Made by a program: the position numbers and the translations under genes
Shown here: positions 10,401 to 28,707 of the stretch, piece by piece
How the letters are laid out: every line of letters starts with the position of its first letter
Numbering within the stretch: position 1 is the stretch's first letter
Notes under the pieces: generated by a model
Databases searched by the model: none
What the model was told of the DNA's origin: nothing
What the model saw: the letters and a program-made list of their open reading frames with translations, nothing else
Origin: an uncultured Methanosarcinales archaeon
GTDB taxonomy: Archaea > Nanobdellota > Nanobdellia > Woesearchaeales > UBA11576
DNA: 28,757 nucleotides
Direction of reading: 5' to 3'
Assembly: GCA_964572875.1 (NCBI GenBank)
Contig: CAZNGE010000008.1
Location: 5,753-34,509 of the forward strand

Positions 10401-10553
10401 TCCAGGACTATTCCTGACCTTCCTGAGCAGCCCTTCTGATTCAGGCTTCCTGTCTATCAGGTCGTTCACCCTGCTCAGCTCAGAGTTCAGCTTCTCGATG
10501 TCTCTATCGACAACCATCGACTTTCTCTTTCCTCTTCTTGCTGTCCTGCTCAT
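1473..10553 (-). CDS. Giant (3026 aa) glycosylated cell-surface/adhesin-like membrane protein. Predicted layout: N-terminal cytoplasmic segment and TM anchor; a huge extracellular region with Ig-like tandem repeats, a LamG/concanavalin-like domain, a poly-Gly linker and a Cys-rich triple repeat; three C-terminal TM helices; a Pro/Ala/Lys-rich cytoplasmic tail.
   Basis: A single uninterrupted ORF. It carries dozens of N-x-S/T sequons. A LamG_3-like signature is present (FTISAWVKV...WYHVVGRF...VSLWVNG). There are ~95-aa repeats containing the motif LYRNGT (DNA repeats near 4005, 5397 and 5639). A Gly13 run is encoded at 2972-3003, flanked by CxxC-rich modules (WxC..WG.C.....Q.RAC, three copies). 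TM helices are encoded around 2270-2560 and 10330-10390. The low-complexity PAK-rich tail is encoded at 1473-2270. The start overlaps the upstream regulator stop by 4 bp. Confidence 0.85.
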   Translation of the reverse strand: MSRTARRGKRKSMVVDRDIEKLNSELSRVNDLIDRKPESEGLLRKVRNSPGSITNYGRIQNHPLMQKEVLFALILLIITAGLFFMHGGITAWIVGGDQYTTYVQHIGANITESQEMTWRLESHPDSFSLRSVKLTGHLKGTGNAKAYLEDSDGRRYLLLDEDTVQKQAITQVTAFAILAGELAEDGNNTENITEDNSTAGNRTEEETVEEEIPAEEVPEDLLGDLSSVDEQAAEVDVPPEEREITTVLRYNMGTLWDEDNDGTEFIEDGVVDLTVEGTGFNWPVDESKLCTKWTVSSIDDGIDTTVCNGAADCCMLAGVAPEEPDWNTPLYVFHGKYGATDNNTVTAQVVFLNQSLSGDVYFESTVGTASSLPVEFVPKETFDFADVCVQTCSLPDGLDADEYTLVFELDDRVELYIENITYSVENLTVDITENETANLTASLTMANATNVSYEKVKTDIRYDAIVDATAYDNETDTLIVIFHHDSFTPLPILVKGRVDYTLDKNISSYGENVTLTITNWSDRMFRIAVGSHTEVLEFGRARQIKFRGRILDSRGRGISARITFRDSLTEEVVAEKTDAEEEKTIDEGEYDIRAEFEDGSHIKEILIDNVDIYDNITSFINVEDVNETEKNLTEYAEVYAIDPTAFNFTNATVTVTATGTVLYKCTSWNFTTQECVISPEDCEPDRGTCNTIQGWQEVMTLTPGQDYSFTLTPDDPGFAEGSPSSGTPDDGGLTSSGTGYDISGGSHASTQTDDSAYYYVGRGNSEEGDDLGAYIELEYDISSLGISPADITKLNFTINYCHSGDETNPVCGQSDPQEGSTNGAQNVELYNWTSSSWVDIGDITVYANDNQQWGSWMVTSGFEDYVDSSDWIKVRYETDIALSSGWDAAFLVDYAPLTVTYEATSGGISFDAASSATGTGSLSFSHTVGSDDNRILIVGVAAESNGASVAADTCRATSVTYDGTGLTKAAGYDLDDGADQCVSLWYLLAPASGTANIQVSFAGTVRESNAGGISIYNASQHAPEATNTNYATGNPSSITTSITTLTDGAWVIDAVGSGDVGAFSTTQSNTERWDVGSSTSQGAGSTKEVSTAGPTNMGWSQSANRLVHVLAAFAPASSNSAPTHTTPLLSSSGGTNTTDEDITIYNQSTYDADSDSVKNIINWYRNSTPIAVLNMPFEDISDPATDYSGQSNTGAVSGATWTETGGHDGSGAYNFDGTSDYINLGTPSELNFAGNSSFTISAWVKVMGNTDTHRPIVVKGDTQYTLKIYTNNTFETCAYDGGWECAYSQSALTEDVWYHVVGRFDNANVSLWVNGTYQSSTTHTGITTNGYNVNIGRDPENPTRLFNGNIDDVQIFDRALSAEQIQALHQGRTDLIVSQETSVGDVWYADVTPNDGTEDGTAKSSNTLTIVEEVDETPPATVTSLSESAIGWTWIQWNWTNPGDADFDSAILYLNGSNIANTSSNGYNFTGLEGFTKYQLIVHTKDADGNVNTTDVSDNALTLDHIAPQYSNIVDQNNSEYAAGGLYQFNITWTDNVNVNSVTFEFDGTNYTDASNSGEVYYKTLSDLATGSYTYRWFANDFLSNENQTGDITFVISERAAELTLTATPGWSSTYGTGVTVNCTTTDEGVTPQLYRNGTPVSIPDVQTLGAGSHGYTCNSTSTQNYSAGSTSNTSIVSKASTTMSISASPSWNETYGTQTTVNCSADNNEVTPQLYRNGTLVSIPNVQTLAAKQHIYVCNASATQNYSASTISNTTTINKAASAVNLLLNGTDGNISIEVGNLVNETGSLVTGDILIELYEGGVLVNSGSSPVTNLTQYSTLGAFNVSAVYPESENYTASSETHWVTVQDTTEPAVILISPADNETTASQTQGFTFNLTDNYYSTASCTLYLDDAASGTNSSVSAGVSTTITNTSLPEGVHSWYANCTDGSSNNGGSSTRTLNIDLTAPNITIAMPLDGKTAGYIVNLQATPTDSVAGVASVWYEIKNSSGASVASDTLTAPNYQDSWNSSSEADGEYTFIVYSNDTVGNLGNSSSIFNLSNTQPYIEITTPASGTDWSSGFNLNITYQDDELSTVVYNITNSTGDIVQSNSTINLNTTSYKFNDPVEVPSIGFGSFTITAYANDSTGYETTETRNFTTSKAASVVSLLLNGTSSNMTIERTTAANLTAIRVTGTGPMQLYRNGALLGSGTTVSDLSAYDAEAVYNITAYYPETQNHSSSRQTYWLTVDDTIPPGSVTDLLLLNKGQNYLYWVWTNPTDSDFYRAEVWLNGAYKTSTANEYYYATGLNHSTLYTISIRPVDTSGTKGAWVNDTERTSFACNENWVAAYSACNLNDTRVKTYNDTAGCGTNYTTPTDNNTIVSCDCVVSTSFYGDTTNLTGNDLSDLQDVVLDNMAYGKIEFTENITITRCLDLDTYVRIGQDYAHISSSALPEFNKSANITLYGINFTSPRIMVDGSVCSSSVCAQINYSGGTFIFNVTHFTNYSVEEGPYCGDGSCNGVETCGSCALDCGSCGSPGGGGGGGGGGGGSARQEEACAPNWLCYSWGPCENNFQSRACFDANACNNDTDKPATERVCVSGCAERWACEDWGKCSEAGVQTRACNDLGRCGTDNRKPETVQPCYYDFCTDGKMNNNETGVDCGGSCRDCTPQELEELARRNLLTGEAITVQPYEPPNPLYIMPLILMLVLLVAVIALHKAKLSYRMKKIITAVHVLLIISIVFMLIVTFNVPEVTGRAVSSMVDTTGISGALLIIIVSVLMVGGFAYVAVTRGMPDLQGLEQYYSKSKYWAGYAIQKIKWSAKRKKQLKEIKVELDSGATSDEKPQQMFEGITQEIDRLNIKVEQTKKEEKPPAKPVQEQLQKPVKKDTAPASKPAVKPPVQAVKPIAPKTIARPITKPAARPVTRPATLTRQIIKPSTKPTTITKPAARPARPAAAPPPRTVAPPARKVVVELIRPKPAAPASAAPTAPARPAVQRPMQKPAPLQKPKEAAKPMKPIDPLAAKFGTDDPLKIAEAILKNRSRNDRDE

Positions 10554-12673: not shown

Positions 12674-12820
12674 TCAGTTCGGTCTTGAAAGGTCCATGTA
12701 ATCGAGGTCTTCATCATTCATCACTATCTCCCTTATGATCTCCACCCTTGCCTTTGACTTGGGCAGGGTGTATATGTACCGTTCCCATTCTATATTTGGG
12801 CCGCCTTCATGGATATGCAT
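12674..12820 (-). CDS. Possible small (48 aa) acidic protein.
   Basis: A perfect SD (GGAGGT) with a 6-nt spacer precedes the ATG: ggaggtagcatcATGCAT. The product is MHIHEGGPNIEWERYIYTLPKSKARVEIIREIVMNDEDLDYMDLSRPN. There is no homology support. Confidence 0.25.
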   Translation of the reverse strand: MHIHEGGPNIEWERYIYTLPKSKARVEIIREIVMNDEDLDYMDLSRPN

Positions 12821-13752
12821 GATGCTACCTCCGGAATGCAGGCTATGCGACAAAGACAACAAAATCATCAAACAAAATCATCAAACGCGCCCGCACCCCT
12901 GAATTTACCCATATATTAATGGTCAACCAGCTATTTAAATGTTGCTGTGATTTCGGGGTTTGTTGCGGGGTTGCTTTTGTTCTGTTTCCGCATGATTCCC
13001 TTGCCATAAAAAATATATAAAACGATTTATTAACCAACCCGTGATTTTTTCCGCATTTATTGCAAAAGATTTCAGCAACTGTTCAAAACTTTACCTAAAA
13101 CACCAATTTCCGTGATTATTACAACCATTTTTTCACAGCATTTTCCGTGCTTTGTTCGATTTGCATTTTGATTTGTTTATTTCAAACATTTTTTATCAAA
13201 AAACTATTTTCTATATGGATAAGTTTTAAATAGTAAAAAAGACATAGTTACTATTGGGGTCGGAGCAAGATAGCTTTCAAAGCAGTTTCATAATCCAATC
13301 GGTAAAAAGGAAGGTGTTGACTAAGCGCAGAACCGAACCTCGCAAGGGTCTTGTTCTTAGTCAAGCAGGTGATACAACATGGGGAAAACACTGACCACGA
13401 TAGCTGCAGCTGTGCTGGCACTGACTATGGGTGCTCCACACTCAGGCTGCACAAACGAGAAACCGATCCGGCCTACTGGTTCTCATGCAGAATATCCTGT
13501 TCCTTTTTTGAGAAAGCTGAGGAAAAAGATCTGCCCGGCAGCAAGCTGGGCGCAGATACAGGTGATAGATGAGGTGATGTCCGGAGCATCGAAAAGAGGT
13601 GCCGGAACTTCATATTTACGGGGCAGGGAGGCGCACTCAACGTTTGTTCTCCAAGCAAAGCGGCTTCGTCGCTTTGCGAGTATCGCCCGGAAAACATCCT
13701 CCCGCCCCGTACCTTATGCTCGTTGAGTTTGAGAAGATGAGAGAGAGATACC

Positions 13753-16140
13753 ATGGCCAGAACAACCAAACCCGCTAACGATGGAAAGCTTGAGGACATC
13801 GTCGCCGAAGCGCCGAAGGATGCCGAAGCGCCGAAGAGGTCCCGGGTGGCGTACATAAGCGAGGTCGCTTACGACACAGAGTATTTTGAGAGGCCTGACT
13901 CGCAGCAGGCATACAGCAACCTTCTTGAGTTCCTGTCGCAGGACAGGAGCGTGACCGGCATACTCATAGACGGAGCCATAACAAGGCTTGACCGGCCCGA
14001 GTTCCTCAACGAACGTCTCACGTACTGGGACAAGTCAGAGGAAGAGTGCCGCGAGGCCACAGAGCAGATACCGAACAGCGACCAGTACATGACCATGATG
14101 AGGACGCAGCTCAGCATAGTTGATGAGAGGCTAAGGGAGCTGAGGCAGCGGGTCCCCCACGCCAGGCAGATAACATTCTCGCTCCATTCTGACGATCTCC
14201 AGTACACGGCTTCCGCGATGCTCAATGAGCTGCTGATAAGGAAGCAGGCCAGGATAGGCGACAAGATAGAGAAGCTCAAGGTGAAGAAGAAGGACCTAAA
14301 GAAGAAGAGGACAGCTTTCGAGAGGGATTTCAAGAAGCTCAAGGGCAAGCGCGGCGGGGCGAGGGACCGGGCCACCCTGAAGAGGAAGATCAACACCTGC
14401 ACCACGAAGGTCGATAACATAGAGGAGAAGCTCACAGACTTATATGAGGAGCAGCAGCTCTACAGGGAGAAGAAGGTAAGGCCCATACACCAGCACACCA
14501 CCAATACGTTCTTGCAGAGAATATACAGTATGTATAAGGGCATCTGCGACAAGTACGGTGTAAGGCTCGTCACAGGCGAGGATAAGCTGGTCTTCGACGA
14601 CCACCTGACTATAGACTACTCGCACAGCAGGCACAAGACCTGGCATCCTGTCAAGGGCCGGGACAAGAATCTGGTCAAGGAGGTGCATGGGGAGCTCAGG
14701 AAGCTCAAGGGATCAGGTATCGACGTGAAGCTTGAGAGCGGCCATTTCGGCATGGGTTTCAAGCAGCTCCAGAAGCTGATGGACTCTCCTGAAGAGAATA
14801 ATTTCCTGAACCAGTCTGATTACGTGTCAAAGACCTGCGATGAGCATATAACCGTAGTGCTGGCGCTGCCGTTCGAGAACACTGCTGCTATAGGCGAGTA
14901 CTGCAAGGGCAGGAAAGCGATAAGGATGAGCGGCGGAAAGCCGATGAGCACGAGGAAGACAGCTGCCACAGACAGGTACTACAATGGCGGCGTGTCAGGA
15001 CTTACGATCATAGAGAAGGACGAGCAGGGAATAGTCAGGACAGACTGGATACAGTACCAGAACTTTGTCGACGGCGCTGTTCTCAGGCAGCCTGAGGAGT
15101 ATTCCATGATTGCGGCTTCTTCAGACGAGCACATGAGGTCGCCTGAATCCAACCCTATAGTCACTGACGGCTGGGTCGAGCGTTTCAAGAGCCTTGTAGC
15201 AGAAGGGACGGTCCTGCGGGGAAGGAAGGCGTTCGTGAAAGGCTATCTCAATGCAGGAGACATGGGAGAGGCGAACTCAAGGAAATGGCGCCATCTGTAT
15301 CATCATCAGCGGGCTCCTGAAGAGGTCATGGACGAGAACATCAGGCTTCTTGCAGATTTCCATCCTGAGAGCATAGATGAGGTGATAGCTCTCGCTATCA
15401 GGAAGACGAATGACTCGATGGGTGGCAGTGTCGAGAGCATGGATGACATACTTGACAGCGTCGCGGATTACCTGGAGAGGTTTCTCGACCCTCTGCTGGC
15501 CGGCAGCATGCTCAGGCATCTGCTTGCAGTGACGGAAGGCAACCATTCAGGGGATATACTGCGCGATCTCGGACTGCGCGAGACCAATTTCTTCAGGCAG
15601 CGCCTCAAGGCAAAGGGGCTGAAGCCGTTTGAGGTAGGTAAGCCCGGCTACATGCAGGACATGGAGAATGCCCGTGTCGTGCTAGGCGGGTACAGCAACG
15701 CACGCATATTCCAGATAACTGATTACGGCATGGGTGTAGACGGCAGGCCGATGTTCGGACCGATAAATCTTGTCGTGCAGCACGACCCGAAAGGCTCGGG
15801 TATGGGCGGGGTCATAGGCGCCGGGAAGAATGCTGGCGCAGACCTTTCGATAGGAGGGCACACGCATGACAATGTGCTGAAGCTCTATAAGACAGATGAT
15901 AACCAGTTCGGCGTCGCGTATAAGCTAGCCACCATGCAGGGGGTCTCGCCCACAGAGAAGTATTACGCATCCTCAGTGCCCCGGACGCAGGCGGCCCAGG
16001 AGCTGGTGATGCCGATGCCAGGCGACTTCAGCGAGAAGACGATACCTGTAGGCTATCTGCGCGACGAGGGCATGGCCGCCATCCGCAGGAAGGCAGAGGC
16101 GCATCTCAAGAAGAGGAAGGGCTGCAAGTGCAGGAGCTGA
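13753..16140 (+). CDS. Large (795 aa) Mre11/SbcD-like calcineurin-fold phosphoesterase homolog. Its N-terminal motifs I and II are degenerate, and a ~480-aa insertion containing a Lys-rich coiled coil is present.
   Basis: The N-terminus RVAYISEVAYDTEYF...VTGILIDGAITRLDRPE aligns in pattern to Mre11 KFAHLADIHLGYEQF...VDFILIAGDLFHSSRPS, but the metal ligands are replaced (DxH becomes ExA, GDxxH becomes DGxxT). Motifs III (TEGNHSGD), IV (VVQHD) and V/VI (GGHTHD) lie in the C-terminal third. The central segment KIEKLKVKKKDLKKKRTAFERDFKKLKGKR...EEKLTDLYEEQQLYREKK is predicted to form a coiled coil. Confidence 0.5.
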   Translation: MARTTKPANDGKLEDIVAEAPKDAEAPKRSRVAYISEVAYDTEYFERPDSQQAYSNLLEFLSQDRSVTGILIDGAITRLDRPEFLNERLTYWDKSEEECREATEQIPNSDQYMTMMRTQLSIVDERLRELRQRVPHARQITFSLHSDDLQYTASAMLNELLIRKQARIGDKIEKLKVKKKDLKKKRTAFERDFKKLKGKRGGARDRATLKRKINTCTTKVDNIEEKLTDLYEEQQLYREKKVRPIHQHTTNTFLQRIYSMYKGICDKYGVRLVTGEDKLVFDDHLTIDYSHSRHKTWHPVKGRDKNLVKEVHGELRKLKGSGIDVKLESGHFGMGFKQLQKLMDSPEENNFLNQSDYVSKTCDEHITVVLALPFENTAAIGEYCKGRKAIRMSGGKPMSTRKTAATDRYYNGGVSGLTIIEKDEQGIVRTDWIQYQNFVDGAVLRQPEEYSMIAASSDEHMRSPESNPIVTDGWVERFKSLVAEGTVLRGRKAFVKGYLNAGDMGEANSRKWRHLYHHQRAPEEVMDENIRLLADFHPESIDEVIALAIRKTNDSMGGSVESMDDILDSVADYLERFLDPLLAGSMLRHLLAVTEGNHSGDILRDLGLRETNFFRQRLKAKGLKPFEVGKPGYMQDMENARVVLGGYSNARIFQITDYGMGVDGRPMFGPINLVVQHDPKGSGMGGVIGAGKNAGADLSIGGHTHDNVLKLYKTDDNQFGVAYKLATMQGVSPTEKYYASSVPRTQAAQELVMPMPGDFSEKTIPVGYLRDEGMAAIRRKAEAHLKKRKGCKCRS

Positions 16141-16186
16141 TACGGTCTTATGGTAATGTTCAACGACTTCGCTAAAGGTGTATTTT

Positions 16187-17590
16187 ATGGCAGATGATGA
16201 TCAGGATGATAAGGATAGCAACCCTTTCGATTGGGGCCCGCTTTACCCCTGCGGTGATGATAAAGGGGATGATTGGGGCGGGAAAGCGGATGGGAAGGGA
16301 AGCAAGAGCCGCATAGACTTTCTCATGCCGCCTCTTCTCGGAGGCAGGGACAGGAAGTGCGGATCTGAAGAAAAGCCTAAAGACCCTCCTGAATGGACCC
16401 TTGAGGAGCAGGTCGCATTCCTGCAGAAAGAGCTCGATGAGAAGACGGAAGAGATAGAGCATCTGAAGGCAGAGGTCAATATCTATTCCGGCATGGTCGA
16501 TGATTATGAGGAGAAGATAGAGAAGACGAACCAGAAGATAATAGAGCATAACGAGAACATCAGGAAATGGCGCGCGGCGCATGAGGTGCTGAAGAAGCAG
16601 AATGAAGAGCTGACGAAACGGCGCGGGTCCATGCAGAAGGACGGGAAAGTGAGTGAGACATTCGCGGACCTGCAGGATATCGAGAAGGAGGTAGTTGACT
16701 TCAGGAAGCAGGACATACGGTTCGATGACGTGGGAGGAATAGGAAGAATAAGGGGCAAGATAGACGAGTTCGCCGCAGGCATAAAACATTATGATATGCA
16801 TGAGCAGTTCGCACTGGACGCACCGAGAGGCCTGCTTCTCCACGGGCCGCCGGGCTGCGGAAAGACCATGCTTGCGATGGCGATGGCCAATGAGATGGAG
16901 TGCGATTTCCTTCTTCTGCCGCCTACAAGGATAGGCAGCGGCATAGTGACGCGTTCATCGAGGCGGCTCGAGTTCGTGCTGAAAAAGTTCGTAGAGAAAT
17001 TCCGGAAGGACAGGATACCTACGATGATATTCGTGGATGAGGCCGACGGGATGCTCAAGAAGAGGGGATCGGCATTCGGCGTCAGCACATACGACGACAT
17101 AGTCAATGTCTGGCTCCGCTATCTCCAGGGGTCTGAGGATAATGAGGGCCTGATACTTGTCGCTGCGACGAACAGGTTCGACATGGTTGATGATGCTATC
17201 GTGAGGGCGGGCAGGGTGAACTATGTGCTGGAGGTCCCGAAGCCTGACAGGACAGGCGTCGAGGACATACTCCGGAAGCAGGTCATATACCGCCATCGCA
17301 GGGCGAAGAGGGAGTTCTACATGATAGATGATTACTCCAGGCTTGCAGACATGCTTTACGGGAAGCAGGCGAGCGGTGCTGACATCGCAGCAGTCCTTGA
17401 GCAGCCTGCAAGGGGGAGGATACTGCAGTTCGCAGAGCTGCCTGAAGACATACCCATATCTGCCGATGATGTGCTGATATGCCAGCAGGAGCTTGAGGAG
17501 GCCGTGCGCAATTACGCGCCTTCAGACATGATGCGCAGGAAGGAGCCTATAGGCTTCGGCAAGGGAGGGCGTCAGGTGCTTGTTGGGTGA
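16187..17590 (+). CDS. Classic-clade AAA+ ATPase with an acidic N-terminus and a ~80-aa coiled-coil/helical N-domain. It resembles Vps4/CdvC or PAN but has no OB domain.
   Basis: Walker A is GPPGCGKT, Walker B is MIFVDEADG, and the SRH is VAATNRFDMVDDAIVRAGRVNYV. The pre-Walker segment IRFDDVGGIGRIRGKIDEF matches the classic AAA pattern, and a C-terminal lid (GADIAAVLEQ) is present. The ATG at 16187 is preceded by AAAGGTG. The ORF track's GTG start at 16178 is less likely. Confidence 0.8.
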   Translation: MADDDQDDKDSNPFDWGPLYPCGDDKGDDWGGKADGKGSKSRIDFLMPPLLGGRDRKCGSEEKPKDPPEWTLEEQVAFLQKELDEKTEEIEHLKAEVNIYSGMVDDYEEKIEKTNQKIIEHNENIRKWRAAHEVLKKQNEELTKRRGSMQKDGKVSETFADLQDIEKEVVDFRKQDIRFDDVGGIGRIRGKIDEFAAGIKHYDMHEQFALDAPRGLLLHGPPGCGKTMLAMAMANEMECDFLLLPPTRIGSGIVTRSSRRLEFVLKKFVEKFRKDRIPTMIFVDEADGMLKKRGSAFGVSTYDDIVNVWLRYLQGSEDNEGLILVAATNRFDMVDDAIVRAGRVNYVLEVPKPDRTGVEDILRKQVIYRHRRAKREFYMIDDYSRLADMLYGKQASGADIAAVLEQPARGRILQFAELPEDIPISADDVLICQQELEEAVRNYAPSDMMRRKEPIGFGKGGRQVLVG

Positions 17591-17604
17591 TTTTCGGGGG
17601 GATC

Positions 17605-17850
17605 ATGATGATATATCCAGAATTTGATGATTGCGGGCATCTCGTCGAAGAGGCGTTAGATTACGCGAGAGAGCTCGGCATAGGGGCCAATGTTGTCGAT
17701 GCGGTCTTTGACCATGCATACCATGACAACAGGCAGATCTACAAGGCTATAACCGCTCTACCTGACCATGACACCCACCTCAGGCAGGCCAACGTGACCG
17801 TCCAGAAGAAGGTGATGTCAGAGCTTGAGAGGCTCGCGGGAAGGAAGTGA
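17605..17850 (+). CDS. Small (81 aa) helical protein that overlaps and is coupled to the AAA ATPase gene.
   Basis: The start region overlaps the AAA gene stop. The ATG at 17605 is preceded by GGGGGGA. The ORF track's alternative GTG start at 17587 gives an ATGA/GTGA-type overlap with the AAA stop. There is no recognisable domain. Confidence 0.4.
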   Translation: MMIYPEFDDCGHLVEEALDYARELGIGANVVDAVFDHAYHDNRQIYKAITALPDHDTHLRQANVTVQKKVMSELERLAGRK

Positions 17851-17901: not shown

Positions 17902-18417
17902 GTGTTAGAGATATACAGGCTTGACGGGACGGAACGGAAGATAATGGACTACGTGACAGAGAATGCGCATGCCACGCCCAAGGAGATAGCCAGGGCTGTC
18001 GACACCGACGAGCAGACCGCAAGGCGCCTGTACAACAGGCTGTTCGCGGAGAACGCGTGCTCGCAGGTTATCCTGCCGAACTACGCGATGCTGGGTTTCA
18101 AGGTGATGATAATCCAGAAGCTCAAGGTGAAGAACAAGTCTTTGCCTGACGTCGCTTTCATCAAGGCGAAGATAGAGTCCGAATGGACCAACTGCATCGA
18201 CTGCCACGAGACATTCGACGGCAAGATATTCGTAAGGAGCGTCTGGAAGAACGCTGAGGAGTTTAAGGATGCCAGGATCCGCCTGCACCAGAAGCATGGC
18301 ATGGAGTGGCTCTCCGGAGAGGAGGTCGACATGGTTCCCTTGAACGAGCAGAGGAGCATATTCAGGGTAAAGAGCCTTTGGGAAAATGAGGTGGAGACTG
18401 AGGAGCCTACGGAATAG
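17902..18417 (+). CDS. Winged-HTH transcription regulator with an Lrp/AsnC-like architecture. Its C-terminal alpha/beta domain carries a conserved CxxCH motif.
   Basis: The N-terminal HTH is KEIARAVDTDEQTARRLYNRL, and a RAM-like segment ILPNYAMLGFKVMIIQKLKV follows. The motif WTNCIDCHETFDGKI is identical in the paralog at 21941. The start is a GTG, supported by conservation of the N-terminus (GTERKI versus NEQKIL) with that paralog. Confidence 0.6.
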   Translation: MLEIYRLDGTERKIMDYVTENAHATPKEIARAVDTDEQTARRLYNRLFAENACSQVILPNYAMLGFKVMIIQKLKVKNKSLPDVAFIKAKIESEWTNCIDCHETFDGKIFVRSVWKNAEEFKDARIRLHQKHGMEWLSGEEVDMVPLNEQRSIFRVKSLWENEVETEEPTE

Positions 18418-21940: not shown

Positions 21941-22429
21941 ATGTCGGGCAATACAAGATCCTTGAAAGCCAATGAGCAGAAGATCCTGCGCCTGCTCATG
22001 GACAATAAAGGACATACGTTCAGGGAGATAGCGAAGCAGGTCAACCTGAATGAGGTTTCTGTCAGGAGGATATACAACAAGCTCATGCAGGAGGATGTCT
22101 TCCAATCATTGCACATACCAAACTTCCCGCTTCTCGGCTATAAGATAATGATGCTCCAGCGCATATACATCGCGAGCCCGTTTCTCATCGAGACAAAGAA
22201 CATAATCAGGAACGTGCTTGATGAATGGAACAACTGCGTTGACTGCCACGAGACATATGACGGCAAGATAATAGCCCGCTCTGTATGGAAGAACGCAGAG
22301 GAGTTCAAGAAGGCGCATGCTGACTTCTACAAGAAGTTCGGCACAGAATGGCTCCAGAGGGAGAACATCGACATGATACCGCTCGACAACTCGAGCAGAC
22401 TGATCAGGATAAAGGGCATAGATGTTTGA
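21941..22429 (+). CDS. Winged-HTH Lrp/AsnC-like regulator, a paralog of the 17902 gene with the same CxxCH motif.
   Basis: The HTH is FREIAKQVNLNEVSVRRIYNKL. The segment WNNCVDCHETYDGKIIARSVWKNAEEFKKA is ~80% identical at the DNA level to 18188-18270. The SD is GGAGGG. Confidence 0.65.
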   Translation: MSGNTRSLKANEQKILRLLMDNKGHTFREIAKQVNLNEVSVRRIYNKLMQEDVFQSLHIPNFPLLGYKIMMLQRIYIASPFLIETKNIIRNVLDEWNNCVDCHETYDGKIIARSVWKNAEEFKKAHADFYKKFGTEWLQRENIDMIPLDNSSRLIRIKGIDV

Positions 22430-22712: not shown

Positions 22713-25304
22713 ATGGGCTGGCTGAAAAGGTTTTACAATCGCCTCAGAGGGCGCGGATTCGAGGATGAGGTATTCGATCTCGACGATATGACTAGCGAGA
22801 GCAGCGTGGACATAGAGCAGCAGGGCAGGAGCCTGGCTGACTTGCTGCTGTTCAGGAAGCCCGAGGAGAAGCCCGATGAGGAGAAGAAGATAAGCACTGC
22901 CCAGAGGCGTATCGACGACATAATAGATGAATATATCCGGGTGAAGAGCGAGGCCGGAGGCAAGTTCCTGAAGTACATGAAGAGAAAGGGGTGGGATCTT
23001 GAGGAGATCATCAATGCAGGTATGCTTTTCGAGCAGACCATATTCAAGGACAATGCCCAGCCGCCTGAAGAGTCTCTCAGGCTCCTGCACAGGGTCATAA
23101 AATCAGGCGTCCTGAAGGAGCAGAATTATGCGGTAGAATACCCTGATGGGACGAAAGGTCCTGTCGGTTCGTCCTCCCAGCTCAAGCTCGTGCTTTACGC
23201 CCTCAACAGGATGATCGCTTCATCAGTGCCTGCATGGGCATACCGTAATATCATCAGCGAATGGGTCGGCAACAAGGAAGCGTATAAGAACAGCGACCGC
23301 TTCGCCCTGGACTTCTTCCAGGCAGTGTCTGATCCGAGCAGGAAAGATGACAAGTCTGGCTCGCTCGCATTGGCAGGCCTCATGTCCAGGCAGCAGCGGG
23401 ACCTGCTGATAACCATCAACGATCGCCTGACGCGATCCTCATTGCTGAGGTATGGCAACAAGTTCTCAGTCATGTGTACTGGGATACTTAACGCGAACGA
23501 GCGTACTCCCCAGAAGGCATATGAGCTCTGCGAGAAGTTCCTTGAAAAGGACACTAAGTTCGAGGTCCCGGAGATGTGCGGCTCGCTTCTCAGCCTTCCC
23601 GATGAGACGCCCAGAAGGACGTTCCAGTTCATAGAGGATGCTATTAACCGCATACTCTCCGACGATAAGACAGGTATGTCTGTGAAGTGGTATGCGGAAA
23701 GCCTTGAGAACTATGTTTCCCAGATTTCGAAGAAGCTGAGTGATGTGGGGCTCGCTCCCCAGATGGATGACAATCCTGAGAGGTTCCTGCAGAACTGGTA
23801 CAAGCTGTCAGAGCTCGCCACCAAGTACGGGAACTTCGGCATGTTCCGGAGAGAGGATATCTCATTTCTTCTCGCGCAGGCCGACTTCGATGCTAAGACC
23901 TATATCGAGAAATGCCTCAATGAGCTCAAGCAGCTTGACCTCAACATGTCAAGCATGACCTCGGGCTATAAACCCGAGGCTCCTCACTTCGAGTTCCTCC
24001 TCGACAGGCTGCATGACGCGAACCCTCTCGAGTCCATGGTGTTTGCCATGGCCCATATGAAGGCAGTGAAAGGAGAGTTGCTGAGGCCATTCGAACAGAG
24101 GTGGTATGATGAGCTGGTGTCTAAGGCATACGCGCGCAACACAGACCTGAGGGAAGACCAGAGGAAGCTGGTAGACATCGTCGTCGACAGGAGGAACACA
24201 AAAGACGTTCCGCCTCATGTCGCAGAGTATTACCGACTGCAGTATGGCGTAAAGGTATCAGGAAGGATGCTCGACCTGGGCAAGGACAACAATGCATGGT
24301 ACCGCTTCAGGAGCTCTGTTGAGGGATATCAGGCCCTGAACGGGGAGGGCCAGGGTGAGGACAGGGTGGATAAAGGGTTCATATCCAGGATTGTCTGGCA
24401 CCTGAACCGGCATGGACAGCTTGGGATGCGCGACATACTTCTGGCAGGGCTTGCCTGCGGCGATGGATGGAAAGAGATCGCGATGTACCTGGAGATAAAG
24501 GACAGGCAGCGGCTTAAGGACGGCAGGCCGTTCAATGTCTGGCTGAACATGTATGACAAGAACTCTGAGATGATAGCAAGGGCAAGGAGGAACTGCAACA
24601 GCAAGAGGATAGCGGCTTCCACCTACAGGAGGGACATAATGGAGATGAACTATGAGACTGATTTCTCAGGTTTCGAGAGGCAGCTTATTTTCTTCCTAGG
24701 AGGAAGGACTCCTTTCAACTTCGGGGATGATTTCAACAGGCTCCTTGACTCCCTGCTCATGATCAGTCTCAAGCACTTCACGGAGAAGGTGCCAAAGCCC
24801 GCGATAATACTGATTGAAGGCGCTGAATCGACGAACATGGAGCATTACTGGGACAGGAATGCGATACAGCTGCATTCCGAATACCTGTTGAGGCGCCTTG
24901 AGATGGACCGCAACGTGATATATTTTGACAAGTCGATCACCCAGCCGATAACGCTTCCTCTGACAGTCATAGGAGAGTCGGCGGAGACTACATACGCAGC
25001 GATCCAGACGCCTGAGAAGGACAGCGTAGAGTTCTATTTTGTCGCGCTCAGGGATACCCCGATACTGGGAGGTAAGCACATGCTGCATGCCAATGAAGTG
25101 ATAAGGTGCGGCGAGAGCAGGCTTATGTCCCCGGAGATATATGCTTCATTGAAAGACCGGTTCATCTGGGAGGTCATAAGGAACGACAATGACGCGAACA
25201 ACATGTTCCTGAAGCTGATACCTGATTACGAAAAGCTTTTAGGTACAGAAAGACAGGCAGAATTACCTTTTAAGTTATTGATGCCGCAGACTGAAGAAAA
25301 ATGA
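22713..25304 (+). CDS. Large (863 aa) protein of unknown function. Its C-terminal third has class-I SAM-methyltransferase (EgtD/Methyltransf_33-like) motifs.
   Basis: The SD is GGAGGC. Motif I is ILLAGLACGDGWKEI, the post-I segment is FNVWLNMYDKNSEM, and motif III is LLDSLLMISLKHFTEKVPKPAIILIEG. The N-terminal ~550 aa show no recognisable domain. Confidence 0.5.
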   Translation: MGWLKRFYNRLRGRGFEDEVFDLDDMTSESSVDIEQQGRSLADLLLFRKPEEKPDEEKKISTAQRRIDDIIDEYIRVKSEAGGKFLKYMKRKGWDLEEIINAGMLFEQTIFKDNAQPPEESLRLLHRVIKSGVLKEQNYAVEYPDGTKGPVGSSSQLKLVLYALNRMIASSVPAWAYRNIISEWVGNKEAYKNSDRFALDFFQAVSDPSRKDDKSGSLALAGLMSRQQRDLLITINDRLTRSSLLRYGNKFSVMCTGILNANERTPQKAYELCEKFLEKDTKFEVPEMCGSLLSLPDETPRRTFQFIEDAINRILSDDKTGMSVKWYAESLENYVSQISKKLSDVGLAPQMDDNPERFLQNWYKLSELATKYGNFGMFRREDISFLLAQADFDAKTYIEKCLNELKQLDLNMSSMTSGYKPEAPHFEFLLDRLHDANPLESMVFAMAHMKAVKGELLRPFEQRWYDELVSKAYARNTDLREDQRKLVDIVVDRRNTKDVPPHVAEYYRLQYGVKVSGRMLDLGKDNNAWYRFRSSVEGYQALNGEGQGEDRVDKGFISRIVWHLNRHGQLGMRDILLAGLACGDGWKEIAMYLEIKDRQRLKDGRPFNVWLNMYDKNSEMIARARRNCNSKRIAASTYRRDIMEMNYETDFSGFERQLIFFLGGRTPFNFGDDFNRLLDSLLMISLKHFTEKVPKPAIILIEGAESTNMEHYWDRNAIQLHSEYLLRRLEMDRNVIYFDKSITQPITLPLTVIGESAETTYAAIQTPEKDSVEFYFVALRDTPILGGKHMLHANEVIRCGESRLMSPEIYASLKDRFIWEVIRNDNDANNMFLKLIPDYEKLLGTERQAELPFKLLMPQTEEK

Positions 25305-26884
25305 AGAATTCGCTGAAAGGAGTAGGATCGCTGGAACGTATCGTCTATCACACGATGGTGGATGGACGGGGCAGGCTTAGGAAGGGCTATGCCCGGCTCC
25401 TGAACCCTTTCGGCAAGTACCGTCATGACCAGTATCCGGCGAACCAGATAGGCCTGCTTGCCCGTCTCGAGAAGCCCCTGCAGGATATGCACATAAAGCT
25501 CGGCGAGATAGAGGATCTTGTCAGGAATGACCGCGCTTATGTTCAGGGCATGTATTCCCCCAATCTGATTCATTTCGTAAGGAAGGTCATCGCGCGTATA
25601 GGGATGGAATCATACAACGTAGAGTGGAGGAACAGGGAGAGCCAGATCCAGCTCAAGGAGAAGATCGAGGCTTCTACTGACATCACGTTGCTCGCGAACA
25701 GGATGCTTTCAGAGATGGCTGAGAGGCATGTCATAGCTGTGTTCAAGGACATAATGAGGGACAAGACCCATCCGCGGAAGAAGGACTTCTATACTGTCAT
25801 GGATCTCGGCTGCGGCATGCACGCCGCGACGATAGGTAACCATCTCGAGAAGCTGCATGATCTCGCTGGAAAGGGACTCATCCCGAAGAGATACAGCGAT
25901 TACGTCAGGGTGCTGCTCGTCGACGTGGATCCGCATGCGACGCATAAGACAGCAGACATGATATCCAATCCTAATTCATATAAGCATCTGGGGTTCAAGT
26001 TCAGCTCTCCGAGGGAGGTCCATTGCTTCAACATGAACTTCAATGAGCTCGCGACCAACCCGGCATTGATGGACTACACAGGGCTTGTAGACACAGGGCT
26101 CAGCGGGGCAGCGCCGTGCCACGTGACAGAGAAGGATGAGTTCTTCAGCATGAACCGCAAGCTGTGCTCGCACAGGGGGGCATTCTTCATGTGGGACTGG
26201 CTCGCCAAGACATTCGCGGCCCAGTATCTCAGGTTGCCGCGTATCGCACCGGGCTGCATATTGTTCGAGGCGTCTCGCGAAATCCCTGAACGGCATGAGG
26301 TATACACATTCGAAGACATAGATGCTATACCTGATGATTTCTATGAGAAACTTAAGGGCACAAGGTGGCGCAGCATCTATGAGCTGCGCGAGGAGGATGT
26401 GGCGCCCCATCTGGCGAACATGGATGCCTGGCTTGGGTATTGGGGGTACAGGATGTTCGACGATTCAGAGGAGTGCTTTGTCGAGAAGCAGGTCAATGGC
26501 ATGGGCATAACCGAGTTCCACCGTAAGCTGTTCCATATGCTGATCGAGAAGGAGAGGGGATACAACCCGATACATGATTTCGTGATAGGCTCGCTTTCAA
26601 GAGGCAGGAGGTCTGACCTTATGCCTTTCGATACCGGTAGGGTCGCCTACAACTTCATAGAGAGCTATGGCATCGAGGTCTCCAGGATGATGAGGAAGGC
26701 CGGTTTCGAGGCATATGACATACCTTTCGCAGAAGCGATGGATCTCGCAAGGACGCAGAACTTAAGCGGAGAGTTCAACATGAATGCAGATGATCTCAAT
26801 GAGACGCAGAAAGTGATGATGCCTGCCCTGAACTTCAGCGTCGCTTACGACGACAAGGATTATCTTGATGAGCTACTTAGATGA
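25301..26884 (+). CDS. 527-aa protein with an EgtD-like SAM-methyltransferase motif set. It is translationally coupled (ATGA overlap) to the 863-aa gene.
   Basis: Motif I is FYTVMDLGCGMHAATIGNHL, and the post-I segment is YVRVLLVDVDPHATHK with an acidic residue at the end of beta-2. Later motifs include FFSMNRKLCSHRGAFFMWDW. Confidence 0.5.
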   Translation: MKNSLKGVGSLERIVYHTMVDGRGRLRKGYARLLNPFGKYRHDQYPANQIGLLARLEKPLQDMHIKLGEIEDLVRNDRAYVQGMYSPNLIHFVRKVIARIGMESYNVEWRNRESQIQLKEKIEASTDITLLANRMLSEMAERHVIAVFKDIMRDKTHPRKKDFYTVMDLGCGMHAATIGNHLEKLHDLAGKGLIPKRYSDYVRVLLVDVDPHATHKTADMISNPNSYKHLGFKFSSPREVHCFNMNFNELATNPALMDYTGLVDTGLSGAAPCHVTEKDEFFSMNRKLCSHRGAFFMWDWLAKTFAAQYLRLPRIAPGCILFEASREIPERHEVYTFEDIDAIPDDFYEKLKGTRWRSIYELREEDVAPHLANMDAWLGYWGYRMFDDSEECFVEKQVNGMGITEFHRKLFHMLIEKERGYNPIHDFVIGSLSRGRRSDLMPFDTGRVAYNFIESYGIEVSRMMRKAGFEAYDIPFAEAMDLARTQNLSGEFNMNADDLNETQKVMMPALNFSVAYDDKDYLDELLR

Positions 26885-27883
26885 TGGTTTCGATGATGTC
26901 TTGTTCTTCTCAGAAGGGAAAGGCAGGTAGTTTATCCTGTGCTCCTTGAACACGAGGCCTGGTTTGCAGTCCTTTATCACGTCAGGGAAATTTGTCTTCA
27001 GCCCCCTGAGCATGTTGTGCAGCTCCATGCTGTTCATTACCTGTATCTCGAACTCAAGGTCTGCCAGCCCTATCGCGTCTGTTATGTAGATCGTGTTCTT
27101 GTTGAGCCTGAGATATTCTATTATCTGGTTGATTATCTGCTTGTTGACGGTGTGGAGCTTGAGGAACACCTTGAAGTGCTGGTATCCTATCTGCGAAGTG
27201 TCTATCATGGTGTTGAACGCGACGATGACCCCGCTGTCGACGAGCTTCTTTATCCTATACTTGACAGTGTTGGGCGAAGCGCCGACCTTCTTGCCAATGT
27301 CCAGCGTCGTGCTCCGGGCGTCTTCCGCGAGCAGCTTGAGTATCTCTATGTCAAGCTCGTCGATGTCTGCAGGCGGCTTGTTGCCCCCTATGACTGCTTC
27401 AGAATAATCTTTAGAGTCGAAGAGGTAGTTGTGCTTGAAATGGTAGATGTGCAGGACGATGCTTATGTAGTATTCCTGGAAGTACTTTCCGTACTTGTCG
27501 AGCACCTTGTCGTATATCTCCCTGAACTCATAGATGTCCTTGGCCCAGAAAAGTACCGCGATGTCGTAGAACCCTTCGTATGCTGCTATCCAGCCGACTG
27601 AGTTCAGGCTCTTGAGGTAGTCTGTGATCTCTCTCTCTATCGCAGGCGAGACGTTCTGGAACTTTATGAACAGCCTGTAGATCTTGTATCCTATGCCTGA
27701 CGTGTCTATGACTGCGTGGAACCCCTGTATTATGCCCTTCTCCACAAGCCTCTTCATGCGGTAGTTGACGACCTCTTTCGAGAGGCCTACCTTCTTGGCA
27801 ATCATGGATATCGGCTGCCTTGAGTTCCTGTCCAGTTCTAGAAGGATCCGCTTGTCTTTGGTGTCTAAAATCGTCGATTTCAC
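26873..27883 (-). CDS. Tandem-duplicated Lrp/AsnC-family transcription regulator with two HTH plus RAM modules. The transcript is leaderless.
   Basis: The two modules are KRILLELDRNSRQPISMIAKKVGLSKEVVNYRMKRLVEKGIIQGF and LDIEILKLLAEDARSTTLDIGKKVGASPNTVKYRIKKLVDSGVIVAF. On the minus strand a TATA (TTATAAAAT, plus coordinates 27897-27906) lies ~25 bp upstream of the ATG. The 3' end overlaps the convergent gene by 12 bp. Confidence 0.75.
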   Translation of the reverse strand: MKSTILDTKDKRILLELDRNSRQPISMIAKKVGLSKEVVNYRMKRLVEKGIIQGFHAVIDTSGIGYKIYRLFIKFQNVSPAIEREITDYLKSLNSVGWIAAYEGFYDIAVLFWAKDIYEFREIYDKVLDKYGKYFQEYYISIVLHIYHFKHNYLFDSKDYSEAVIGGNKPPADIDELDIEILKLLAEDARSTTLDIGKKVGASPNTVKYRIKKLVDSGVIVAFNTMIDTSQIGYQHFKVFLKLHTVNKQIINQIIEYLRLNKNTIYITDAIGLADLEFEIQVMNSMELHNMLRGLKTNFPDVIKDCKPGLVFKEHRINYLPFPSEKNKTSSKPSSK

Positions 27884-28260: not shown

Positions 28261-28707
28261 ATGATAAAGAGAAAGGACCTTTTGATTTTGTCATACCTAA
28301 GGAACAATGCCAGGCAGCGCCTTACGAGCATTTCCAGAAGGACGCACATACCCGTTACAACGATATACGACAACGTGAGAAGGTACGAGAAGAAGTTCAT
28401 CGTGAAGCACGCGAGCCTTCTTGATTTCAGGAAGCTTGGTTTCAACGCTAAGACAAATATAGCTCTGAAGATAAACGGCTCTAGGGCCGAGCTGCTGAGC
28501 TACCTCCAGGAACATCCGAATGTTAATTCTCTGTACAGGACCGATTCAGAATTCGATCTTATGGCAGAGCTTGTGTTCAGGGAGTTGAGAGATGTCGATG
28601 AGTTCATGGAGACCCTTAACAACAAGTTCGACGTGGAAAAGAGTGTCGTCTTCAACATAACAGAGGACCTTAAGCGTGAAGATTTCATGAGCAAGGTCTC
28701 GTTTTAG
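28261..28707 (+). CDS. Lrp/AsnC-family transcription regulator (148 aa).
   Basis: The HTH is KDLLILSYLRNNARQRLTSISRRTHIPVTTIYDNVRRYEKK, followed by a RAM-like domain. The SD is GAGGTG. Confidence 0.7.
   Translation: MIKRKDLLILSYLRNNARQRLTSISRRTHIPVTTIYDNVRRYEKKFIVKHASLLDFRKLGFNAKTNIALKINGSRAELLSYLQEHPNVNSLYRTDSEFDLMAELVFRELRDVDEFMETLNNKFDVEKSVVFNITEDLKREDFMSKVSF

Follow-up and report, generated by a model that had tools for sequence, protein, structure and literature searches.

The subject of this analysis is a 28,757-nucleotide (nt) stretch of DNA from an uncultured Methanosarcinales archaeon that GTDB places in the Woesearchaeales (NCBI GenBank assembly GCA_964572875.1, contig CAZNGE010000008.1, positions 5,753 to 34,509 of the forward strand). 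We refer to this whole stretch as the window, and our interest lies in one of its genes, which encodes a protein of 795 amino acids (aa) and is followed by a gene for an AAA ATPase. As judged from predicted structures and conserved motifs, the 795-aa protein is two calcineurin-type metallophosphoesterase (MPE) folds in one chain, of which one is degenerate and the other carries an intact catalytic signature. An earlier description of the same DNA, made from its letters and a list of open reading frames (ORFs), had instead proposed an Mre11-like protein with lost metal ligands and a huge coiled-coil insertion, placed in a three-gene module with the ATPase and an 81-aa protein; we call this the sequence-only reading. 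The parts of the 795-aa protein are as follows, in window coordinates.

13753..16140, + strand: tandem metallophosphoesterase gene (795 aa), from the ORF list
13840..15087, + strand: MPE fold of the N-terminal half (residues 30-445), its motifs degenerate
14191..14460, + strand: helical hairpin, basic and antiparallel (residues 147-236), an insertion in the N-terminal fold behind its strand 3
15100..16047, + strand: MPE fold of the C-terminal half (residues 450-765), in which all canonical ligands are present
15118-15132, + strand: motif I of the C-terminal fold, SSDEH
15253-15270, + strand: motif II of the C-terminal fold, AGDMGE
15538-15549, + strand: motif III of the C-terminal fold, GNHS (residues 596-599)
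15772-15786, + strand: motif IV of the C-terminal fold, VVQHD (residues 674-678)
15853-15870, + strand: motif V of the C-terminal fold, GGHTHD (residues 701-706)

The predicted folds of the 795-aa protein

In its predicted structure, the C-terminal domain has the beta-alpha-beta-alpha-beta sandwich that is characteristic of the MPE superfamily, and the ordered calcineurin-like ligand motifs D-x-H, G-D, G-N-H, H, and G-H-x-H all lie within the C-terminal 320 residues. Residues D458, H460, G502, D503, G596, N597, H598, H677, H703, and H705 are invariant in 46 aligned homologues, with motif V reading G702-H703-T-H705. The sequence-only reading had correctly located GNHS, VVQHD, and GGHTHD, which are present at the residues given above, but its claim that the metal ligands are lost was mistaken, as the second fold keeps every canonical ligand, including D458-E-H460 and G502-D503, which had been overlooked. 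Since these invariant residues supply motifs I and II, the C-terminal half is a complete domain. Pfam Metallophos gave weak matches to 10 of the 46 family members (best E 0.0036), and one longer member, P0067, reaches the gathering score of this model (PF00149; 21.6 vs 21.5 bits) over its C-terminal domain. We rate it as likely that the protein is an active phosphoesterase.

The N-terminal residues 25-447, when modelled alone, are likewise predicted to form a full MPE fold. In the sequence register, its motif I position reads S36-E37-V-A39 instead of D-x-H, motif II reads D73-G74 instead of G-D, and motif III reads S146-D147-D148 instead of G-N-H; the motif IV position is occupied by H291, and motif V is G330-H331-F-G333 instead of G-H-x-H, with the second histidine lost. 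The N-terminal fold as a whole therefore lacks the canonical metal-ligand set. Nevertheless, because it has its own invariant residues in the alignment (D41, D73, G74, H291, H331, and G333), it appears to be constrained despite being non-canonical, and with D41, D73, H291, and H331 all invariant, an altered metal site is possible. The degeneracy of the N-terminal motifs I and II had been noticed before and stands, as SEVAYD (residues 36-41) and IDGA (residues 72-75) are without the canonical Asp and His; the accompanying notion of a split fold does not stand, as the N-terminal half is predicted to be an MPE fold of its own. No similarity between the two halves was detectable by hhalign, so a duplication, if that is their origin, would have to be ancient, or else the two folds have separate origins.

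The hairpin inserted into the N-terminal fold consists of helices 147-196 and 203-236 and is strongly basic, with 18 K and 8 R (26 K+R) against 15 D+E in 90 residues. It corresponds to the Lys-rich coiled coil of the sequence-only reading, which does exist but occupies only these 90 residues rather than the bulk of an insert of ~480 residues. No CxxC hook was found in the sequence of its apex. The hairpin is ~91 residues long in 30 of the 46 homologues (range 63-111), and these include bacterial proteins whose genes have no AAA neighbor. We had considered that it might exist to bind the coiled coil of the AAA protein, and this idea is weakened by the retention of its length in homologues without such a neighbor.

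A homology search identified 58 full-length relatives at 36-80% identity, which come from metagenome-assembled genomes (MAGs) of Woesearchaeota/Nanoarchaeota together with a few Patescibacteria. All 58 are unnamed or "hypothetical" except for one that bears the JGI label "phage shock protein A", and none has a precomputed Pfam domain. An alignment profile run against 1.84 billion cluster representatives matched 56 proteins, nearly all of them spanning both domains, and none of the 56 bridges to ordinary MPE families. Loci of the family were found 23 times in a species-level genome collection and 22 times among metagenome contigs, and no relative of the phosphoesterase was found on the viral contigs scanned. 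Against Pfam, NCBIfam, PADLOC, and PHROGs, the 795-aa protein gave only coiled-coil artefacts (SMC, LmuB, JetC, and tape-measure), the SMC matches reaching 19 bits vs a 567-bit cut-off. A hidden Markov model (HMM) of the C-terminal domain alone hit nothing in the PDB but designed Kelch proteins, through spurious matches to GHTH. In the sequence libraries and literature searched, neither the phosphoesterase family nor the gene set is named or described. Pfam has no model for the family. While the fold and its chemistry are known, those sources hold no description of a live and a dead MPE fold in tandem with a hairpin, of the family, or of the gene set.

In its working, the 795-aa protein would be most like the Mre11/SbcD-type phosphodiesterases, yet it lies outside that family, and no Mre11 or SbcD model of NCBIfam/TIGRFAM matched it at E ≤ 0.1. 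Unlike Mre11/SbcD, it combines two folds in one chain, one of them degenerate; and its coiled coil lies within the MPE, is ~90 residues long, and has no zinc hook. No capping domain was identified in it. No Rad50/SbcC-type ABC or SMC gene was found in the window, and the neighboring gene families (AAA, HTH, transglutaminase, and SPFH) bear out the earlier view that this is not the Mre11-Rad50-HerA-NurA arrangement. A second comparison is with DP1, the small subunit of PolD, and with the inactive B-subunits of the eukaryotic polymerases alpha, delta, and epsilon. The 795-aa protein differs from these in joining its degenerate fold to an intact one, in showing no detected OB domain, and in having no polymerase partner gene, and identity is 8-12%. 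Minimal phosphodiesterases of the MJ0936/YfcE type are single small domains of ~165-185 residues without the partner fold, helical insertions, or hairpin seen here.

The AAA ATPase, the gene neighborhood, and the reduced module

The remaining features of the locus are listed below.

13379..13462, + strand: remnant of a trypsin-like lipoprotein protease, signal peptide plus lipobox (MGKTLTTIAAAVLALTMGAPHSGC), found by tblastn
13602..13723, + strand: structured-RNA-like leader of ~100-120 nt, immediately 5' of the phosphoesterase start codon
16187..17590, + strand: AAA ATPase gene, 467 aa from ATG 16187 (GTG 16178 gives 470 aa), with an acidic N-terminus
16394-16711, + strand: coiled coil of the AAA protein (residues ~70-175), with coiled-coil-type matches only
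16844-16867, + strand: Walker A of the AAA protein, GPPGCGKT
16934-16957, + strand: degenerate pore loop 1 of the AAA protein, GSGIVTRS (residues 250-257)
17030-17047, + strand: Walker B of the AAA protein, FVDEAD
17201-17218, + strand: arginine fingers of the AAA protein, VRAGRV
17546-17560, + strand: C-terminal PIGFG of the AAA protein
17587..17850, + strand: small ORF of 87 aa, its GTG start sharing bases with the AAA stop codon TGA (GTGA)
17902..18417, + strand: winged-helix regulator (HTH_24), 171 aa, Pfam E 4.9e-6

The ORF list confirmed the three plus-strand genes of the sequence-only reading, although two of its details required correction. The phosphoesterase stop at 16140 and the AAA start at 16187 were placed correctly, but the 37 nt reported between them is the distance to GTG 16178, and the distance to the ATG, which is preceded by GGTG, is 46 nt. 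Similarly, the reported overlap with the AAA stop codon is true of the 87-aa GTG form of the small ORF and not of the 81-aa ATG form, which begins at 17605. The public gene calls contain the 467-aa AAA form and the 87-aa small-ORF form. The 87-aa protein had no family match in the Pfam search; homologues with 34-39% identity were found by tblastn at the same position in five related loci (L005, L023, L026, L032, and L035), and the gene is missing by the same method from the nearest relative, L031. Its conservation does not extend beyond the closest clade, in which phosphoesterase identity is 51-80%. The MPE, the AAA protein, and the 87-aa protein are all without a predicted transmembrane or hydrophobic segment.

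Residues 216-351 of the AAA protein match PF00004 at E 1.3e-24 as its single domain, and no OB or MIT family was found in Pfam at E ≤ 0.1, all of which agrees with the earlier description of a classic-clade AAA protein that has its own coiled coil at the N-terminus and shows neither an OB nor a MIT signature. Its nearest solved relatives are the D1 and D2 domains of VAT/CDC48 (E 6e-60). However, its scores are far below the cut-offs of the models for PAN (132 of 500 bits), CDC48 (~126 of 803), CdvC (94 of 650), and IteA (~87 of 510), and the orthologues are likewise below; for IteA (NCBIfam NF042959), the window protein scores 86.9 bits and the orthologues 91-109, which places them all outside the family. 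Like PAN and VAT/CDC48, it is of the classic clade, shares an N-terminal coiled coil with PAN, and has orthologues with the canonical K-W-V-G pore loop. Unlike PAN and CDC48, it is a single-ring protein, has no OB, N-domain, or MIT, and carries an R-I-G-F tail in place of HbYX, and its one PF00004 domain contrasts with the N-domain and two tandem AAA rings of CDC48/VAT. The orthologues leave no room for the OB domain of PAN, since they are only ~360 aa long and end in R-I-G-F-G. By the criteria of the known families, the protein is an unclassified classic-clade AAA ATPase that is not PAN, CDC48, Vps4/CdvC, or IetA.

Its specific orthologues number ~20, mostly of ~350-370 aa and 38-49% identity with one at 76%, beyond which the next matches are generic CDC48 proteins, and these ~20 all seem to be encoded on contigs that also carry phosphoesterase homologues. 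Their C-terminal [K/R]-I-G-F motif is conserved, with IGL in L020 and I-E-G-F in L015. The window protein retains intact Walker A and Walker B motifs, an intact sensor 1, and intact arginine fingers. At pore loop 1, however, the orthologues and VAT have SKWVGE, and only the window protein and the 76%-identical P0105 have GSGIVTRS, so the window protein lacks the aromatic-hydrophobic-Gly signature of classic-clade unfoldases. In comparison with L031, the ratio of nonsynonymous to synonymous substitution rates (dN/dS) is 0.175 for the AAA gene and 0.119 for the phosphoesterase gene, indicating that the AAA gene is under purifying selection. Given this selection, the pore-loop change is a lineage-specific alteration rather than decay or a sequencing error.

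The following context counts derive from pattern-seeded scans and MAG contigs of uneven length. In the closest clade, the minus strand carries genes for a giant LamG protein, a sigma70_r4-like protein, and SpoIIM, and the plus strand carries in order one or more Trypsin_2 proteases, the phosphoesterase, the AAA protein, an ORF of ~85 aa, a PD-(D/E)xK-like ORF of ~105 aa, the HTH_24 regulator, a transglutaminase, and SPFH. The HTH_24 regulator follows the cassette in all close relatives, with orthologues 61-88% identical at the same position. At distant archaeal loci the flanking genes differ and the trio of protease, phosphoesterase, and AAA genes is still together. It is held in at least four gene orders down to 42-45% MPE identity (L015, L019, L020, and L029): Trypsin_2, MPE, AAA in L005-L008, L023, L032, L035, and L038; Trypsin_2, AAA, MPE in L020, L029, and L043; MPE, three Trypsin_2 genes, AAA in L015; and MPE, four small ORFs, Trypsin_2, AAA in L019. 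Between the protease and AAA genes of L015, L019, and L029 there is an overlap of 4-8 nt. In Woesearchaeota the phosphoesterase gene is linked to one to three Trypsin_2 genes, which are 290-340 aa long in the relatives where they occupy the position of the window remnant, and every one of the proteases starts with a lipoprotein-type signal peptide and a lipobox cysteine. Among distinct loci, ~14 have both partners, ~9 have only the trypsin-like gene (several of these on short contigs), and 3 have only the AAA gene.

Conservation of the MPE-AAA pair in other genomes had been set beforehand as a test, and the pair is indeed conserved across archaeal genomes in these several gene orders. The sequence-only reading had named two outcomes as counting against it, an absence of any calcineurin-fold relationship in profile searches and a lack of co-conservation of the two genes; given the co-conservation in archaeal genomes, neither outcome was found. 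Its strictly three-gene module has to be revised, however, as the consistent third partner in the relatives is the trypsin-like lipoprotein protease, whereas the 87-aa gene is confined to the closest clade. Nor is the pairing obligatory, as bacterial homologues stand alone and the AAA gene has been deleted from one lineage of archaea.

Two further neighborhoods bear upon the partners of the phosphoesterase. In L001 (2708-7481) and L017 (3387-9082), it follows genes for an AAA protein of ~800 aa, a proteasome-like (PF00227) protein, and 2-3 unknown ORFs, which is a second, different neighborhood of AAA and peptidase. In L033 (712-5209), a related AAA gene (34% identity) and a Trypsin_2 gene occur with a PD-(D/E)xK-like ORF (3774-4094), and six small unknown ORFs are present instead of the phosphoesterase; the possibility that these six are a fragmented MPE gene was rejected by tblastn. 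The same ~105-aa ORF, with a PD-(D/E)xK-like signature (EIDLVG...D-x-YEVK), lies between the AAA gene or small ORF and the HTH regulator in L005-L008, L026, L032, L035, L036, and L038. It weakly matches the PADLOC model CARF-PD-(D/E)xK, has no Pfam match, and is absent from the window. The gene set resembles IetAS, a pair known from plasmid stability and anti-phage activity, in pairing a classic AAA protein with a serine protease gene, often in translational coupling (L015, L019, and L029), and in its matches to IetA HMMs. It is unlike IetAS in that the protease is an S1 trypsin-like lipoprotein and a tandem phosphoesterase is added. A ClpXP-like feeding of substrates from the AAA protein to the protease was also considered, and it is unlikely, as the proteases have lipoprotein signal peptides.

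In the window itself the module is reduced. A tblastn search with the protease orthologues matched only their first ~29 residues at 13379-13462 (E 7e-4 to 0.02), and the remainder of the 115-aa ORF at this position (13379-13726, + strand) is not protease-like and overlaps the RNA-like leader; no gene is called at 13379-13726 in the public record. The nearest relative, L031, has no room for a protease gene either. The reverse situation occurs in L036 (6001-8394; = L053), in which the AAA gene is deleted and the phosphoesterase now ends in the AAA tail, KKRIGFGV, while this locus still has the protease gene and the small ORFs downstream. Such piecemeal losses imply that the phosphoesterase is the stable core and that its partners are dispensable. 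Absence of the protease coincides with the GSGIVTRS pore loop in the same two genomes, those of the window and L031. As the protease is gone and the pore-loop aromatic is replaced, yet the AAA gene is under purifying selection, the AAA protein of this lineage may have a role that does not need canonical polypeptide threading.

The leader and other features of the window

The region immediately upstream of the phosphoesterase gene resembles a structured RNA. A long-range helix with support from covariation is formed by ACGGGGC/GCCCCGU and GGGAGG/CCUCCC, there is an invariant core of GCACUCAAC...UUCUCCA...GUAUCGCCCGGAAA, and a hairpin of variable length occupies a fixed site at 13655-13677. Conservation of the leader is far above that of synonymous sites, and the core GUAUCGCCCGGAAA is invariant across 13 loci whose proteins are 52-80% identical. 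A covariance model found one leader per locus in these 13 loci, at the same position and strand with 76-104 bits, and none elsewhere in 635 kb. In the helix, 82.8% of cells are paired, compared with 54-67% when the partners are slid, and 6 pairs are changed on both sides, compared with 1-3 in the slid controls; an example is GGGAGA/UCUCCC in L007, L008, and L022. The many G-U pairs are consistent with the plus strand, and the window copy has a minimum free energy of -45.6 kcal/mol (z -5.35). Rfam contains no family for it, and an E-value scan gave only a 12-bit snoR9 match on the opposite strand. The leader is a candidate cis-regulatory RNA of the phosphoesterase-AAA operon, possibly riboswitch-like.

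Further upstream, at ~13025-13254, there is an AT-rich non-coding stretch with 73-77% nt identity in about ten relatives, in which it lies upstream of the protease gene. It holds two TTTCCGTG boxes 35 nt apart, and enrichment of TTTCCGYG boxes over chance was not significant in the window (3 found, 1.1 expected). This stretch is possibly a promoter or operator region. A small ORF (12674-12871, - strand; 48-65 aa) shows 73-80% nt identity in many relatives and corresponds to a public 48-aa gene.

Several other features of the window were recorded. Positions 70-185 (+ strand) give an Rfam tRNA match of 41.5 bits over 116 nt, for which ARAGORN reports no tRNA in the window; the length suggests that it could be an intron-containing archaeal tRNA. 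A 3026-aa ORF at 1473-10553 (- strand), matches Laminin_G_3 at E 1.8e-29 and, weakly, Big_7 and fn3. It probably encodes a giant protein of the cell surface, and it is followed on the same strand by a sigma70_r4-like ORF of 154 aa and a SpoIIM-like membrane protein in a block that is syntenic in close relatives. Four winged-helix/Lrp-type regulators are encoded within 11 kb (17902-18417, 21941-22429, 26873-27883 on the minus strand, and 28261-28707). Those of 171 aa and 162 aa are paralogues at ~41% identity, and the pair of a 336-aa double-HTH protein and an Lrp-like protein also flanks the phosphoesterase loci L001 and L017. Adjacent ORFs of 863 and 527 aa at 22713-26884 (+ strand) have no match in Pfam, PADLOC, or PHROGs, and the pair is kept in L007, L023, and L026. 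Finally, the AT skew is strongly negative over 1-11 kb and positive from ~13 kb, coinciding with the switch of coding strand, and this sign change is due to the purine richness of the coding strands and is not a feature of replication.

Proposed mechanism and rival explanations

Taken jointly, we give a probability of about 55% to a reading in which the 795-aa protein is a tandem of a dead and a live MPE, its N-terminal domain serves as a scaffold, its basic hairpin holds a polyanionic substrate, and the AAA protein is a remodeller, with the window holding a reduced form of the module. The N-terminal domain would be a built-in non-catalytic or half-site partner, such that one chain imitates the homodimer of Mre11/SbcD or else the inactive B-subunit scaffold of polymerases. 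The polyanion gripped by the basic hairpin would be the substrate, with nucleic acid as the likeliest candidate, and an AAA hexamer would remodel or load the enzyme or its substrate, perhaps using its conserved C-terminal R-I-G-F tail as a docking peptide. Our best guess for the activity is that of a phosphodiesterase or nuclease which depends on metal and cooperates with an ATPase remodeller, and a role of the module in defence or DNA processing is possible. The individual parts deserve separate weights. That the substrate is nucleic acid seems to us to fall a little short of an even chance, and a direct interaction between the AAA protein and the phosphoesterase is doubtful.

A number of points weigh against this reading. 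Neither a phmmer search of the PDB sequences with the 795-aa protein nor a search with the full-family HMM gave an MPE match, the window protein itself has no Metallophos (PF00149) match in Pfam, and the MPE structures listed by Foldseek against the PDB were non-significant (best E 0.02); as there is no significant Pfam, NCBIfam, or PDB match, the fold assignment rests on predicted structures and motifs. We infer the assignment of N-terminal residues to ligand positions, and with it the likeness to a homodimer or a B-subunit, from the sequence register only. The partners are also not constant. About 12 loci, including all of the bacterial ones, have neither an AAA nor a protease gene, and specifically no such gene lies within 8-10 kb of the phosphoesterase in bacterial L003, L021, L024, L025, and L030 or in archaeal L028; moreover, the AAA gene was lost in one lineage and the protease gene in that of the window. 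Absence of the protease and the altered pore loop are tied together by only one evolutionary event. Lastly, the proteases are lipoproteins, whereas the MPE and AAA proteins look cytoplasmic, so that direct feeding of the protease by the AAA protein is topologically unlikely.

The alternative that is closest to the sequence-only reading, a catalytically dead scaffold with a single Mre11/SbcD-like fold split by a coiled-coil insertion of ~480 residues, would fit the degenerate N-terminal SEVAYD and IDGA and the spacing of GNH, H, and GHTH ~500 residues on, but it is already contradicted by the evidence for two folds and we consider it extremely improbable. We regard as unlikely a defence, conflict, or toxin-antitoxin-like system with the logic of IetAS, in which the MPE and the small PD-(D/E)xK-like protein would be nuclease effectors under HTH and RNA regulation and the system would be decaying in the window. 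Such a system would agree with the matches of the AAA protein to the PADLOC IetA models (86.5 bits for the window and 123.6 bits for L029), the weak matches of the proteases to defence trypsin-like models (LmuA-protease at 5e-13, PDC-S45, and RT-Protease) and of the ~105-aa neighbor to CARF-PD-(D/E)xK, the rare and patchy distribution across archaea and bacteria, the piecemeal loss of components, and the AAA, Trypsin_2, and PD-(D/E)xK-like set without MPE in L033. However, the AAA proteins score higher with the CDC48, PAN, and CdvC models than with IteA, for which they reach 87-109 of 510 bits, and the proteases are S1-type exported lipoproteins, whereas IetS is a subtilisin-type protease. The PADLOC matches of the MPE are coiled-coil artefacts, none of the scanned viral contigs encodes a relative, and in the window clade the surface-protein, SpoIIM, transglutaminase, and SPFH genes around the locus are stably syntenic, which is not the setting of an obvious defence island.

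It is about equally unlikely that there is no module at all and that the phosphoesterase works by itself in housekeeping or salvage, for example by scavenging nucleotides or nucleic acid in host-dependent DPANN or candidate phyla radiation (CPR) organisms, with its neighbors reflecting Woesearchaeota synteny. The loci without AAA and protease genes speak for this, as do the nucleic-acid genes beside L028 (PCNA and RNase J) and L003 (PolX, DHH, and PD-(D/E)xK), the retention of the hairpin whatever the partners, and the fact that the AAA or protease gene can be lost. Simple synteny is difficult to reconcile, though, with a trio that stays together in several gene orders between differing flanks, with an AAA subfamily that matches the MPE family in rarity and hardly ever occurs away from it, and with the AAA and proteasome-like peptidase of L001/L017, which form a second, independent link to ATP-dependent proteolysis. 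The two unrelated pairings of AAA and peptidase, one of the coiled-coil AAA with Trypsin_2 and one of the 800-aa AAA with the proteasome-like protein, raise the further alternative of a protein phosphatase or protein-processing factor that works with ATP-dependent proteolysis and is not a nuclease. The MPE superfamily includes the PPP phosphatases, yet we rate this alternative as quite improbable. At its most elaborate, the tandem-MPE reading with an AAA remodeller would extend to an undescribed multi-component DPANN system, comprising a leader-RNA-controlled pseudo-dimer nuclease that the AAA protein operates and that is coupled to surface trypsin-like proteases, with a function in defence against mobile elements or in the harvesting and processing of macromolecules of the host by an episymbiont, and with a new class of archaeal riboswitch; we think this extension unlikely to hold in full.

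The case also illustrates that motif reading without structure can take a domain duplication for a split fold. We came across no account of one chain that joins a degenerate to an intact MPE and bears a conserved basic hairpin, and its recurrent linkage to a dedicated AAA protein and to peptidases suggests an uncharacterised machine. If the leader is a ligand sensor, it could reveal the physiological signal to which this operon responds and would be a further example of the rare cis-regulatory RNAs of archaea. The family is limited to ultra-small, host-dependent lineages, the Woesearchaeota and Patescibacteria. Genomes are the main source for the biology of these lineages, and thus the function of the family, once characterised, would annotate a conserved unknown of these organisms.

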